Shown here: positions 29,736-38,749 of the stretch, one piece after another
How the letters are laid out: the number at the start of each line of letters is the position of its first letter
How positions within the stretch are numbered: position 1 is the stretch's first letter
Sequence record: PZ445488.1
Direction: 5' to 3' (one strand)
Length of the DNA stretch: 64,000 nucleotides
Origin: a phage
Made by a program: the position numbers and the translations under genes
Notes under the pieces: generated by a model
What the model was told of the DNA's origin: nothing
Database searches by the model: none
What the model saw: the letters and a program-made list of their open reading frames with translations, nothing else

Positions 29736-30194
29736 TTATAGGAGGGTAGTGAGCACCTTATATAATGATTTGCCCATCACATATTCCCATTGAGAAGGTT
29801 TAATTAAAGCGAATGCATCAAATTCAGGAATCTGTCGTCCGTCTGGGAATGTATGATAGGAATTACAAACACTGTTTCTGAATTGCTCGTGCTCTACAGG
29901 GATGGTATATAGGAACAGATGAATATTCTTATTGTCTGAGTAATGATGTTCACCTAGGTCTTTCAGGAAGGCAGGGTCATATTGTGTAAACCCAGTTTCT
30001 TCTTCGCATTCACGAATAGCGGCTTCAATAGGAGATTCGCCAGGTTCGACACGGCCTTTAGGAATATCCCAGCGATGAGCTAATGCACCTTTAGGACGAG
30101 AACCAGTTACACGCCCCATGAATAATTCTTTATCTTCGGTAAGGAAAATAATACCGGCTGATAGCTCTTTCACTTTATTTTTCTTACTCATCAT
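29736..30194 (-). CDS. nudE: Nudix hydrolase NudE
   Basis: 152 aa; Nudix box GRVEPGESPIEAAIRECEEETG; position downstream of e as in T4. Confidence 0.85.
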   Translation of the reverse strand: MMSKKNKVKELSAGIIFLTEDKELFMGRVTGSRPKGALAHRWDIPKGRVEPGESPIEAAIRECEEETGFTQYDPAFLKDLGEHHYSDNKNIHLFLYTIPVEHEQFRNSVCNSYHTFPDGRQIPEFDAFALIKPSQWEYVMGKSLYKVLTTLL

Positions 30195-32240: not shown

Positions 32241-33197
32241 TTATTTGAAAGGTTTTACCATATGAAAGTTTTGTTTGAAACGCTTGACGTAATCGTCGTG
32301 TCCTAAGCTTTGGTACATACTTACTACTTTGCTATAATTTTCCCAAGCGAACTCACGGAACCATCCTGATGTGATTGATGTACAGACCTTTTCAAGGGCC
32401 ATCATAAAACTATCACGTGGATGGATTTCAAAGTTATTAGGAATCTGAGAACGTTCTAACGCTAGTACACATGATTCTTCGTATACGCCGGCCAATTTGA
32501 CCATTTCTGGTAATGATTCGAACTTCTCGCGTGAGGTCATGACTTCAGAACCATCTTTCATATAAAATGTATACGCTGGACGGTCTGTTAGTGCAATGGC
32601 TTCATGAATAGTATCATGGTCATATGTATAGATGTCATCTTTAAAGAACGCACTTTTAGAAGTGTCAAGAACTGGGTGAGCATAATTCAAGGTTTCTTTC
32701 TGGCGTTTCAGCATAATTTCAGTAAGTTCATCGTTCAGTGTAACACCTTTACCACGAAGATACTGAATATGGTTCATAGTCTTTAAAAAGAATGGATTAT
32801 TTTTCTTGAAACGATGAGACATCTTAATTGCAAGACATATCTCAGGAGTTGCCCAGTAAAACCCGTTCAAACGGTCTTTAGTCAAATTTTTCTTGGCGTA
32901 TTTTAAAAGGTCATAAGAAGACGTGAAATCTTCAGGAGTGAGTTCACCGACTAGTTCGCGAACGTTAGTGATAGCCGGAACGATGTATGCTTCAAAATGA
33001 GTTTCGCGTCCATTATGGAAGCATTTGAAAACTTGGACATCAGGGTTATCTTGGTGAACATATACACCCATCATTTGATTTTTGAATGCATTCCAAGAAC
33101 CTTGGTCCGCAATAAAGTCCCAATCACTATTTTTAATAGCGCTAGAATCAATAAGACCGTGATAGTGAAGTGCACGAGAACCAATAACTAACATCAT
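32241..33197 (-). CDS. hypothetical protein with weak nucleotidyltransferase-like N-terminal motif
   Basis: 318 aa; IGSRALHYHG...SDWDF loosely fits GS...DxD pattern; low confidence in the domain. Confidence 0.5.
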   Translation of the reverse strand: MMLVIGSRALHYHGLIDSSAIKNSDWDFIADQGSWNAFKNQMMGVYVHQDNPDVQVFKCFHNGRETHFEAYIVPAITNVRELVGELTPEDFTSSYDLLKYAKKNLTKDRLNGFYWATPEICLAIKMSHRFKKNNPFFLKTMNHIQYLRGKGVTLNDELTEIMLKRQKETLNYAHPVLDTSKSAFFKDDIYTYDHDTIHEAIALTDRPAYTFYMKDGSEVMTSREKFESLPEMVKLAGVYEESCVLALERSQIPNNFEIHPRDSFMMALEKVCTSITSGWFREFAWENYSKVVSMYQSLGHDDYVKRFKQNFHMVKPFK

Positions 33198-33225: not shown

Positions 33226-33477
33226 TTAAATTTCGCGACATGCGATATTATATTCATCCCAGAGGTCGTCATGTGAAGCCTCTACCAATGGAACGATTGT
33301 GCCGTTTATGTCTTCATTATAAGGGCAAATTGTACAGTGCGCATCTTCGAATCGGATGTCTTTGTGTTCAGATTTTTTATAACGCATATCGAATATCTTT
33401 GCAAACTTTTCACGAGTAATAGTTTTAGCAACTACTTCGGTTCCGATACTTTCGTAATAAATCATTGTGGACTCCAT
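33226..33477 (-). CDS. hypothetical protein
   Basis: 83 aa ORF, ATG start. Confidence 0.45.
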   Translation of the reverse strand: MESTMIYYESIGTEVVAKTITREKFAKIFDMRYKKSEHKDIRFEDAHCTICPYNEDINGTIVPLVEASHDDLWDEYNIACREI

Positions 33478-33484
33478 TTGTTTT

Positions 33485-33523
33485 GATAGGACTACTATAA
33501 CATAGCCCTATCTTGTTGTAAAC
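33485..33523 (-). promoter_or_regulatory. PeSL-like early promoter with stem-loop
   Basis: GATAGGACTACTATAACATAGCCCTATC...GTAAAC on plus. Confidence 0.5.
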
Positions 33524-33527
33524 TGTT

Positions 33528-33725
33528 TTAGCAAGAATAACTAGATGATACCCAGCCTTGAACAGTGATACTATTGTGGGATAATGAGATCGCGTCCTGG
33601 AGATTCAGACCTGCGTTATCTTCAATCCACAATGTAACTTCTTCACGCTCTTCGGTTGCAATCTGGAACAGGTTTTCCAGGGCAGCTACTGCCGTACGTA
33701 CAGCACAATCTAATTCACGAGACAT
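33528..33725 (-). CDS. small protein, C-terminal GWVSSSxxC family, paralog 1
   Basis: 65 aa ending ...VQGWVSSSYSC. Confidence 0.5.
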   Translation of the reverse strand: MSRELDCAVRTAVAALENLFQIATEEREEVTLWIEDNAGLNLQDAISLSHNSITVQGWVSSSYSC

Positions 33726-33734
33726 ATGATTTCC

Positions 33735-34007
33735 TTAACAAGTGTGAGAAGATGCAACCCAACCACCATCTTCAAGGCTCAGGTTGTAGTCGTATTGGTA
33801 AACGTCAGCCCATTCAGCCTGGCCGTTTTTTGTACAACGTTCAAGATCGGCTTTAAGATGTCCGGGTGAATGATAGGTTCCACCCATGCCATAAGCTGGA
33901 TACAAGTTGAATGTTGTGTTTTGTTTATCAGCAATTTCTTTGGCAGCCTCAATAGCTGCATAGATTTTTGCTACAGCTTCAGCCAGTTCGGTTTGTTCTT
34001 TAGACAT
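33735..34007 (-). CDS. small protein, C-terminal GWVSSSxxC family, paralog 2
   Basis: 90 aa ending ...DGGWVASSHTC; shares YxxGxGxTY motif with paralog 3. Confidence 0.5.
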   Translation of the reverse strand: MSKEQTELAEAVAKIYAAIEAAKEIADKQNTTFNLYPAYGMGGTYHSPGHLKADLERCTKNGQAEWADVYQYDYNLSLEDGGWVASSHTC

Positions 34008-34016
34008 AATGATTCC

Positions 34017-34322
34017 TTAGCACAACGCAGAAGACGAAACCCAAGCACCTTCAGTAATAACGTATCCATTACCTTCACGCTTAACATCGCCGCCATTATT
34101 TTCAATTTCATCTTTCATCCACTGGGATACGATTTCACCCTTAGGATAATAAGTACGACCGCTACCATAATCACCTACAGAAAATGATACGGCATATTGG
34201 TCTGCGATCTTTGTTGCTTCTTCTTCGATACGTTCAGCTTGATTCAGAAGTTTATAAATTGCATCTGAAGCGGATTTGGCATCATTAAACTCTGGTACTT
34301 TAATTTCAATAATCTTACTCAT
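34017..34322 (-). CDS. small protein, C-terminal GWVSSSxxC family, paralog 3
   Basis: 101 aa ending ...EGAWVSSSALC. Confidence 0.5.
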   Translation of the reverse strand: MSKIIEIKVPEFNDAKSASDAIYKLLNQAERIEEEATKIADQYAVSFSVGDYGSGRTYYPKGEIVSQWMKDEIENNGGDVKREGNGYVITEGAWVSSSALC

Positions 34323-34678
34323 TTTCTACATTCCTTAATAAAGTTTTCGATTGTTTCATTTTCACGTCTAGCTAGGAGTTCATTATAACTAATCATTTGA
34401 GAAGCGTAAACCTTTTTATTTTTCTTGTTGTGGTTTATAAAATCGTAGTAAAAATAGACTACAGTAAAAAATGATGCGATGGATGCAAAGGCTTGGGTAT
34501 ACCGTAAGTCCTGCCATTGGTCTGTGAATCCACCAGTGTTCCCTATAAATCCTAACACAACGCCGTCAATAAGAAATCCAACTAATCCAAAGGCAAATCC
34601 CATGCCAATACTCATAATAAAAATTAGAATGTTCTCACCAAGAGAAGGCCATACGGTTAAGAGTTGAGGCTTTTGCAT
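34319..34678 (-). CDS. hypothetical membrane protein, C-terminal E-x-F-I-x-E-C-R motif family
   Basis: 119 aa; hydrophobic; ends ...IENFIKECRK. Confidence 0.5.
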   Translation of the reverse strand: MQKPQLLTVWPSLGENILIFIMSIGMGFAFGLVGFLIDGVVLGFIGNTGGFTDQWQDLRYTQAFASIASFFTVVYFYYDFINHNKKNKKVYASQMISYNELLARRENETIENFIKECRK

Positions 34679-35052
34679 CTTATTTCCTTAACGAATTCCA
34701 TAGCTTCTTCATATTCATACTTTTTAACAGCTTCATCATACTGAGCTTGGGCTTTTGCGCACTGAACTTTCCATTCTCTTAATCGGGCTCTGTGATGACG
34801 TCCTTGGTACCAATATCCCATCCAGTTAATAGGCATTAATAAAAACGGTACAATAAGTGGTGCGACGAACATTAATGAAAATGCTGCATCGGACGATATA
34901 ACTTCACTAGAATCTAAAACGGCTCCTATAATCATAAAGATTAAAAATGCTAAAGCTAAAATAGGGCCAAATAGTACTTCATTTGGGATTAATTTACGCT
35001 TGTATTCATACGCCCAGGGCTTACTTGGCATGTACAGGGTTGGCTTTGACAT
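34657..35052 (-). CDS. hypothetical membrane protein (start uncertain)
   Basis: Start placed at ATG 35052 inside the C-terminal codons of the upstream gene; ends ...EFVKEIRCKSLNS. Confidence 0.4.
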   Translation of the reverse strand: MSKPTLYMPSKPWAYEYKRKLIPNEVLFGPILALAFLIFMIIGAVLDSSEVISSDAAFSLMFVAPLIVPFLLMPINWMGYWYQGRHHRARLREWKVQCAKAQAQYDEAVKKYEYEEAMEFVKEIRCKSLNS

Positions 35053-35617
35053 ATTCTCTACATTCCATAATAAATTGCTCAAGGATTAAATTGTTAGTGA
35101 AATTAGGACTAACAACCATAGTTTCATAAAGCGCATCAATAGAACTTAAAGCATCAACTCTTTTAAGCAAAGGCTTGCCTTCATACATAGTTTCAGAATC
35201 GACGATTAACGTAAAGTAGTATTTTTTATTATCGACTAGAACTTCTGTATCGATATAAAACATATTAGACCTCAGAAGCTTATCTCTAAAACCATAATAA
35301 TCTTCAGAGCGTTCGCTGATATATTCCCATTCAGTGTTTAAACAACAAACAGACCACGTAGGAGCAACGAAATCAGTGAATCTAATATCATGGTCTGCAA
35401 CTAGTTTAGCAATAGCTCCGATATCATTAATCATGATACCTGGGGCTAATAAAGATTTTCGGTTATTTGCATATTCAGTTGTCTCATAAGAAGACGACCA
35501 GTACCATTTACGTCCAGTTGCAACATATCGTAATGAATCAACTAAAGACGTAGGTGGATTTACCTTATTTCGGAACTCTTCGAACATTGAGTCAATATCA
35601 TTATTTTGGTTTCGCAT
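35021..35617 (-). CDS. hypothetical protein, C-terminal E-x-F-I-x-E-C-R motif
   Basis: Start at ATG 35617 with AAGGAG SD; ends ...LEQFIMECREYVKANPVHAK. Confidence 0.5.
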   Translation of the reverse strand: MRNQNNDIDSMFEEFRNKVNPPTSLVDSLRYVATGRKWYWSSSYETTEYANNRKSLLAPGIMINDIGAIAKLVADHDIRFTDFVAPTWSVCCLNTEWEYISERSEDYYGFRDKLLRSNMFYIDTEVLVDNKKYYFTLIVDSETMYEGKPLLKRVDALSSIDALYETMVVSPNFTNNLILEQFIMECREYVKANPVHAK

Positions 35618-38594: not shown

Positions 38595-38671
<77 letters not shown>

Positions 38672-38674
38672 AAT

Positions 38675-38749
38675 TGGTGACCCTGGCTGGTTTCGATCCA
38701 GCTACCTATCAGTTATGAGCTGACAGCTCTCCCATTGAGCTACAGGGCC
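38675..38749 (-). tRNA. tRNA with CAU anticodon (Ile2-type as in T4, or Met), CCA encoded
   Basis: Minus strand GGCCCTG-TA-GCTCAATGGGAGAGC-T-GTCAG-CTCATAA-CTGAT-..-GCTGG-ATCGAAA-CCAGC-CAGGGTC-A-CCA; manual cloverleaf. Confidence 0.75.

Follow-up and report, generated by a model that had tools for sequence, protein, structure and literature searches.

Why do three consecutive small genes of a T4-like coliphage encode proteins that end in nearly the same few residues, and what could such a shared end be for? The question is posed by a 64,000-nucleotide stretch of phage DNA (sequence record PZ445488.1; this whole stretch is hereafter the window), in which open reading frames (ORFs) of 65, 90 and 101 amino acids (p65, 33528..33725; p90, 33735..34007; p101, 34017..34322; all on the minus strand) end in GWVSSSYSC, GWVASSHTC and AWVSSSALC, respectively. 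A first-pass annotation had taken them for tandem paralogues whose invariant C-terminus is a shared binding or modification determinant. Here we describe the phage-restricted family to which these cysteine-tailed (Cys-tail) proteins belong and a widespread two-gene phage module, formed by the Cys-tail genes and a gene for a protein with the domains DUF7277 and DUF7275 (hereafter the partner; 318 aa in the window, 32241..33197, minus strand, single copy, RB69ORF134c type), for which the tail may serve as a docking element.

The three ORFs exist as described, their resemblance goes far beyond what chance would give, and their ends are unusual within the window: a six-frame scan gave 967 stop-to-stop segments with 30 aa or more, and only these three adjacent ORFs end in W..SS..C, or even in SS..C. 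Neither is the similarity limited to the last residues. p90 and p101 align over 73 aa (BLASTP E 2e-6) and score 76.6 and 66.1 bits, respectively, against a hidden Markov model (HMM) of the family, of which 62.7 and 55.4 bits remain once the last nine residues are cut. p65 alone is weak against the same HMM (9.4 bits with its tail, 2.9 without), and a profile built from its orthologues aligns end to end with the family profile, helix on helix, strand on strand and tail on tail (hhalign probability 87%, E 3.8e-6, 58 columns). In PHROGs, p90 and p101 match phrog_899 (E 5.3e-19 and 1.3e-22), and p65 matches phrog_4882 (E 8e-37). Judged from these comparisons, all three ORFs are evidently homologous, with similarity that extends past the tail, and the tandem paralogy proposed at first pass is upheld. 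Some of its details need correction: two of the ORFs do share a loop motif, a hairpin of the form Y-G-x-G-x-T-Y (AYGMGGTY in p90, DYGSGRTY in p101) and not Y-x-x-G-x-G-x-T-Y, and the common MS(K/R)E start applies to two N-termini, MSRE and MSKE, the third being MSKI. p90 is nearest to the family consensus, and p101, of the RB69ORF139c type, combines an N-terminal helix with the DYGSGRTYY hairpin. In the divergent p65, the helix, a beta-strand and the tail are retained but the Y-G-x-G-x-T-Y hairpin is missing; the p65 subtype has two traits that other subtypes do not, namely a second invariant Cys (C7) in a strongly conserved N-terminal helix, MSRELDCAVRTA, and a Tyr conserved at position -2 (SSSY.C).

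At the nucleotide level, the codons for W-V-S-S-S-A-L-C, W-V-A-S-S-H-T-C and W-V-S-S-S-Y-S-C, each with its stop, occupy 34017..34043 (p101), 33735..33761 (p90) and 33528..33554 (p65) on the minus strand. The Ser(-3) codon is AGT in p65 and TCT in p90 and p101, and the Cys codons are TGC, TGT and TGC across the three genes; because these codons differ between the paralogues, conservation of the tail acts on the protein and is not due to gene conversion. Moreover, p101, p90 and p65 each have orthologues of their own in Dhakavirus-like and Klebsiella/Enterobacter T4-like phages at 42–63% identity, in a comparison where the partner has 66–75% and flanking accessory genes 27–87%. These separate sets of orthologues indicate that the triplication is old and that each paralogue has been conserved in its own right and is not fast-evolving, which lends no support to the earlier proposal of diversification under selection. 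Since the triplication is old and every copy is conserved, subfunctionalisation is suggested. Two observations on the array may be added here. A fourth family member, of 69–80 aa and ending in ...FW[FY][ST]SSM..C, is present in Dhakavirus and Klebsiella/Enterobacter T4-like phages (L009 3874-4095, L014 3489-3698, L012 3899-4135, L015 3933-4166 and L016 3919-4161), and the window phage stops at three. The RB69 reference annotates its p101 orthologue (P0002, RB69ORF139c) with 71 aa; this protein diverges after residue 68 (...SQWYEK), so that the Cys tail is lost, owing either to a frameshift in the laboratory strain or to a sequencing or annotation error.

How widespread is this tail? When 1.84 billion representative proteins were searched with a profile, 579 family representatives (50% identity clusters, E ≤ 1e-3) were found, a result that, together with one to six copies per locus, answers the earlier call to check conservation and copy number in related phages. 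Tail statistics were taken from the best 146 of the 579: the chain ends exactly at the Cys in 136 of these (93%), 144 have W..S...C with at most one extra residue, and there is essentially no variation at W(-7), S(-4), S(-3) and C(0), which makes the tail the most conserved feature of the family. The Y-G-x-G-x-T-Y hairpin is common and not obligatory (128/146), the terminal Cys is the sole one in 90/146, and the median isoelectric point (pI) is 4.56. Lengths are nearly all 60–140 aa, with profile matches reaching the last residue, and the consensus runs from an N-terminal helix ending in (E)AExIADE through F-x-F, A-Y-G-M-G-G-T-Y-Y-P and a variable acidic linker to G-W-x-S-S-S-x-x-C. AlphaFold2 (AF2) modelled p101 confidently (predicted local distance difference test, pLDDT, 89.6; predicted template modelling score 0.76), as a long helix on a small beta-sheet whose last strand (W94 to S97) bears the Trp; the pLDDT drops to 58 at the last residue. 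The fold check called for at first pass thus yielded a model, but no solved fold matched it, and the family profile found only low-complexity helical matches in the PDB. Searches of Pfam, NCBIfam and PADLOC with the small proteins returned only noise. The family consists of phage-restricted, small, acidic alpha/beta proteins whose defining trait is an exposed tail, G-W-x-[S/A/P]-S-S-x-x-Cys-COOH. Among individual arrays, Acinetobacter T4-like phages have a second copy without the terminal Cys (...WSNSEA, ...WSNSES, ...WSSSNE; L040 2996-3187, L124 1125-1376, L129 2320-2589 and L066 2661-2852), flanked by copies that retain it. The largest array, on a 9.5-kb metagenomic phage contig (L079 6081-9089), places six members around one partner, five upstream and one downstream, with the tails GWQPSAGTC, GGWYSSHC, GWKNSSSYC, GWTNSSTYC, GWEGSAC and EWMSSSDQC.

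The Cys-tail genes are tied to one neighbour, whichever side the search starts from. Of 30 IMG/VR loci retrieved through the partner (41–98% identity), 29 have one to three Cys-tail ORFs upstream on the same strand; 26 of these are HMM-detectable and three have diverged (...WVQSSC; ...WSSSSAHC/...WASSRC; ...WDSSSC). Conversely, a degenerate DNA pattern for YGMGGTY retrieved 43 loci with true family ORFs, and the partner is present, always on the same strand, in all 33 that could be assessed, the other ten having at most 815 nt of downstream sequence; the small genes lie upstream of it in 32/33, with a median gap of 213 nt. Exact-protein look-ups of distant family members found a DUF7275 gene downstream in 8/8 cases, usually 0–200 nt away. 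The pairing recurs in GenBank phages from unrelated groups: phAPEC8 and phiWec186 have three copies each, and further cases are PsgM04F, Mokit, Apostate, AB1I1T, Mendera (whose copies lie downstream) and Pseudoalteromonas H101. In 185,579 bacterial and archaeal species genomes, the partner was confined to five phage-size contigs of metagenome-assembled genomes (MAGs), four of which have Cys-tail genes directly upstream. When all neighbours of 31 partner lineages were clustered, the small family was found in 26 and every other cluster in at most 5, so that no third conserved gene emerged. Copies per locus under a strict HMM number one in 16 loci, two in 15, three in one and six in one, and the partner is always single-copy. 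In the window, too, the full-length partner lies on the same strand, less than 1.5 kb downstream, a context that the first pass did not mention. Cys-tail genes and the DUF7277/DUF7275 gene thus constitute a widespread two-gene phage module. Because the family is tied in this way to one conserved, enzyme-like neighbour, the idea of the invariant C-terminus as a shared binding or modification determinant gains support.

The partner itself matches DUF7275 (PF23940, E 3e-79), DUF7277 (PF23942, E 1e-27) and phrog_2141 (E 2e-150), and is present in at least 734 phage records. Across 16–28 lineages its invariant residues are G6-S7, D25-x-D27, K125, H128-R129, K139, H174-P175, H194-D195, H198, E240-E241 and E248-R249; D215 is nearly invariant, and a TSITSGW block is also conserved. 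This conservation pattern looks enzyme-like. The N-terminal G-S...D-x-D...E arrangement (G6-S7, D25-x-D27, E69) resembles pol-beta nucleotidyltransferases, and one GenBank record names the protein 'putative nucleotidyltransferase', but no such family was found in Pfam, PDB or NCBIfam searches; likewise, H...HD (H128, H194-D195, H198, E240-E241) resembles HD hydrolases, with no HD match in Pfam or the PDB. Both readings are motif-level guesses, because the profile searches gave only DUF7275 and DUF7277. Short partner homologues of about 250–265 aa in Streptomyces, Gordonia and Schizotequatrovirus phages consist of DUF7275 and the first ~30–35 residues of DUF7277, and the 301-aa homologue of DSS3_VP1 keeps about 45. 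Since the short forms retain only the G-S...D-x-D element, they argue against a complete classical pol-beta fold, at least in themselves, and the nucleotidyltransferase reading appears weakened.

The same short homologues bear on which part of the partner goes with the small proteins, since no Cys-tail neighbour was found in the phages that carry them. Counted by lineage, 36 with a full-length partner have Cys-tail genes and one does not, compared with one and three, respectively, for short partners (Fisher p 0.0015), the lone short-partner case 'with' being a spurious 39-aa regular-expression match. By this correlation, it is probably the middle subdomain of DUF7277 that accompanies the Cys-tail proteins. 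A different small ORF, with the pattern R[FY]F[RK]K.G.Y.S..G...G...EV.P..K.ITV (L043 4594-4893, L044 4872-5357, L045 3360-3653, L125 4133-4468 and, more weakly, L042 5217-5612), flanks short DUF7275 homologues of Streptomyces, Gordonia and Vibrio phages; it has no Pfam match and may represent another partner family.

How might the two components work together? We propose that the Cys-tail proteins and a putatively metal-dependent partner form a module in which the tail is a docking element for the partner, a reading to which we give an even chance. The invariant G-S, D-x-D, H, H-D, H, E-E and E-R residues would make the partner a probable metal-dependent enzyme, and the Cys-tail would enter its conserved His/Asp/Glu site, probably through the terminal thiol and the alpha-carboxylate. 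As a terminal Cys offers both groups, a chain that ends exactly there would be explained. The likely contact surface is the DUF7277 middle subdomain, about residues 30–115, because partner homologues without these residues are also without Cys-tail neighbours. The one to six diversified small proteins of a phage could then serve the partner as substrates, could inhibit it, or could be interchangeable subunits for regulation or specificity. Their genes have an early/middle location, in accessory regions where genes for RNA repair, tRNAs and nicotinamide adenine dinucleotide (NAD) metabolism abound, and this setting fits a host-interaction or counter-defence role. A bolder version, which we hold to be rather unlikely, is that DUF7277–DUF7275 is a new protein-modifying enzyme that recognises the W-x-S-S-S-x-x-Cys-COOH tail and acts on it chemically; it might, for instance, activate Ser and close a thioether ring, or leave an adduct on the Cys or the carboxylate, and the small proteins would then be a new effector class or carrier system.

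Several observations weigh against tail docking. One full-length partner locus (L018) has no detectable small neighbour, and the pooled counts of loci with and without a Cys-tail gene (74 and 2 for full-length partners, 1 and 4 for short ones) include many loci retrieved via the small protein, which inflates the number of full-length partners 'with'. Profiles of the full-length partner, its N-domain and its C-domain, run against PDB, Pfam, NCBIfam and PADLOC, found only DUF7275 and DUF7277, and the single-sequence AF2 model of the partner (pLDDT 35.9) is unusable as a fold. Some members have altered tail spacing (WVQSSC, WDSSSC, WASSRC, WYESRC) and a few in multi-copy arrays have no Cys (...WSNSEA); given this variation and loss, one rigid chemistry on S-x-x-C seems unlikely. 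In the window, finally, an 83-aa gene and a hairpin stand between the paralogues and the partner.

Could the small proteins instead do without the partner? They might act alone on host targets, as anti-defence or takeover proteins or nucleic-acid mimics, with a tail that binds a host protein and an adjacency to DUF7275 that is merely inherited. Small, acidic (pI 4.2–4.8) early/middle-region proteins in one to six copies per genome would suit such a role, as would the NAD-salvage, Sir2, ART, RNA-ligase and PNK genes that adjoin them in several phages. However, the pairing persists without other shared synteny in 26/31 partner lineages, even where the partners are only about 40% identical, and spans T4-like phages, Phapecoctavirus, Menderavirus, Myxococcus Mx1 and metagenomic phages of 27–130 kb; where no other synteny is shared, inheritance alone is not expected to explain adjacency. 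Nor are the paralogues fast-evolving, and the anti-defence or host-takeover family suggested at first pass found no link in PADLOC, Pfam or the literature, so that we consider independent action improbable. A purely structural tail, whose Trp packs the core and whose Cys serves folding or a metal- or disulfide-bridged oligomer with no partner-directed role, would agree with the last beta-strand of the AF2 model, which includes W94 to S97, and with a C7 that could pair with the terminal Cys in p65-type proteins. Yet most members have a single Cys and the cytoplasm is reducing, and the exact Cys ending, the near-obligate linkage and the correlation with a partner subdomain would be left unexplained, which makes this explanation very unlikely.

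Two further explanations keep the partner and change what passes between the two proteins. The pair could resemble a toxin–antitoxin (TA) or zymogen system, in which the partner is harmful and is inhibited by the small acidic proteins, their terminal Cys thiolate and carboxylate plugging the metal site (compare the cysteine switch). An enzyme gene preceded by a small acidic gene, often with translational coupling between them (gaps of 4–60 nt), does recall type II/VII TA loci, and the invariant His/Asp/Glu clusters suit metal binding; against this, the module is carried by lytic phages and is extremely rare in bacterial genomes (the five MAG matches among 185,579 species), up to six anciently diverged 'antitoxins' per enzyme would be unusual, and comparison with known TA families showed no similarity. 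We judge it as improbable as independent action. Alternatively, the partner could mature the small proteins, modifying the tail or building on the terminal Cys, candidate routes being activation of Ser(-3)/Ser(-4) with a thioether ring to Cys(0), nucleotidylylation, or a swinging arm like that of LysW, ThiS or ACP. S-S-x-x-C-COOH has the Ser(i)/Cys(i+3, C-terminal) spacing of the ring-forming ends of epidermin and cypemycin, one enzyme with several precursors that share a recognition element is the logic of peptides made by ribosomes and modified post-translationally (RiPPs), and 93% of the members sampled end exactly at Cys. No LanB, LanM, LanKC, LanD/HFCD, ATP-grasp or E1-like gene is conserved nearby, however, the proteins are folded domains and not leader-core peptides, and non-canonical tails break the spacing; maturation of this kind therefore strikes us as quite improbable. 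Docking of the tail on the partner thus remains the reading that we prefer.

The window belongs to a T4-like coliphage of the RB69/Mosigvirus type and has 100% identity with Escherichia phage CEV1 across the locus and ~98% with many Mosigvirus genomes. The locus is an accessory stretch that runs from the lysozyme gene e to the tRNA genes, of which tRNA-Arg and tRNA-Met lie at 38595-38749, and the three ORFs, which correspond to RB69ORF136c-139c, sit between the e.2-side genes and e.3. All features from here to the 83-aa ORF are on the minus strand. The p101 ATG overlaps the e.3 stop (ATGA), and at both downstream junctions the stop codon is embedded in the Shine-Dalgarno sequence: TGC TAA GGAATCATT ATG between p101 and p90 (34008-34016) and TGT TAA GGAAATCAT ATG between p90 and p65 (33726..33734). 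Upstream of the three genes, e.3 contains a promoter-like site (34382..34410) whose equivalent in phage SA79RD is annotated as T4 middle-promoter-like. Directly 3' of the p65 stop, an RNA hairpin with an 11-bp stem (33485..33512; -16 kcal/mol, z -4.5) is followed by AAAACAAA, with no U-tract; SA79RD has a terminator annotated at the equivalent site, and the hairpin is overlapped by a promoter-like match (33522 to 33494). The partner lies 330 nt downstream of p65, and the intervening 83-aa ORF (33226..33477, phrog_3723) is a T4-like-specific insert and no conserved component of the module, because it is present in only 3 partner lineages. An e.4-like membrane protein (window 34657-35082; L001 7458-7853 in phage JK45) is named 'sulfurtransferase' in two JK phage records; it is separate from the Cys-tail and partner genes, and the label, which has no Pfam or PHROGs support, is probably spurious.

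In about ten of the loci that we examined, genes for NAD+/ADP-ribose metabolism are no more than a few kb away from the module: NAMPT, NMNAT-Nudix or PRPP-synthetase-like genes and NAPRT in L003, L039, L042 and L129, Sir2 in L038, L127, L128 and L130, ART in L124, Macro in L135 and, in the window, the Nudix gene e.1 (29736-30194). As such genes are absent from five further contexts, we rejected a consistent link with NAD metabolism, and the proximity may be no more than that of genes sharing an accessory or counter-defence region. RNA-repair and tRNA genes likewise recur near the module or the short DUF7275 homologues, with Rnl1 and PNKP in L004 (3206-5990), RNA ligase, RlaP and DUF488 in L134, RNA ligase in L042 and L125, PNK in L043, tRNA arrays in L044 and L126, peptidyl-tRNA hydrolase in L127 and the tRNAs of the window; the recurrence is loose and was not accepted as a consistent association. 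On one metagenomic phage contig, faint matches to Amidoligase_2 and GATase_4 (L007 1347-3882) lie ~2 kb upstream of a Cys-tail gene.

The linkage is mentioned in nothing that we could search, and it joins two large 'dark' phage families that had no assigned fold, function or literature record. An exactly terminal, invariant Cys is rare on a folded protein and suggests specific chemistry or metal-directed docking. With two components, the module is simple, abundant and experimentally tractable, the partner being present in readily manipulated T4-like coliphages (RB69, CEV1, JS98, phAPEC8), and a new enzyme-partner mechanism might emerge from it. Were the partner to modify the tails, hundreds of large lytic phages would carry enzyme-matured effectors or a carrier system; were the two a plain regulator–enzyme pair, the gain would be more modest, namely the annotation of several DUF and PHROG families.

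Finally, the module is unlike any described system with which we compared it, its mechanism being one that we infer. Direct membership is limited to phrog_899, phrog_4882, DUF7277 (PF23942), DUF7275 (PF23940) and phrog_2141, all of 'unknown function', whose PHROG and Pfam entries do not link the small family with the partner, mention the Cys tail or join phrog_4882 with phrog_899; we found no description of the families, the ORFs or the module in the literature, within the limits of the searchable library. PADLOC defence models gave only noise, and no library dedicated to anti-defence HMMs was searched. The TA pairs AbiE, MenAT and MntA-HepT likewise have a small acidic upstream gene and a downstream enzyme-like gene with an N-terminal G-S...D-x-D, but the module differs from them in having no HMM similarity, in being phage-restricted and in its multiple, anciently diverged small genes, and the short partner homologues keep too little of the N-domain for a complete pol-beta fold. 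With the lanthipeptide/AviCys RiPPs (EpiA with EpiD, cypemycin) it may be compared for its C-terminal S-x-x-C-COOH and its several precursor-like genes per enzyme; unlike those precursors, the Cys-tail proteins are folded and 60–120 aa long, with variant tails that do not keep the spacing, and no Lan-type dehydratase/cyclase or HFCD decarboxylase families of Pfam were found in 8 annotated contexts. LysW, with its tail EDWGE, and ThiS/MoaD, with the tail GG, use their C-termini as handles for enzymes, LysX and E1-like proteins, respectively. The beta-grasp fold, C-terminal Gly-Gly and E1-like partner that define ThiS/MoaD were not found with the Cys-tail proteins, and the resemblance to that system would be a loose one; by analogy with LysW-LysX, however, the module appears to combine a small acidic protein, an invariant extreme C-terminus and a co-encoded enzyme.

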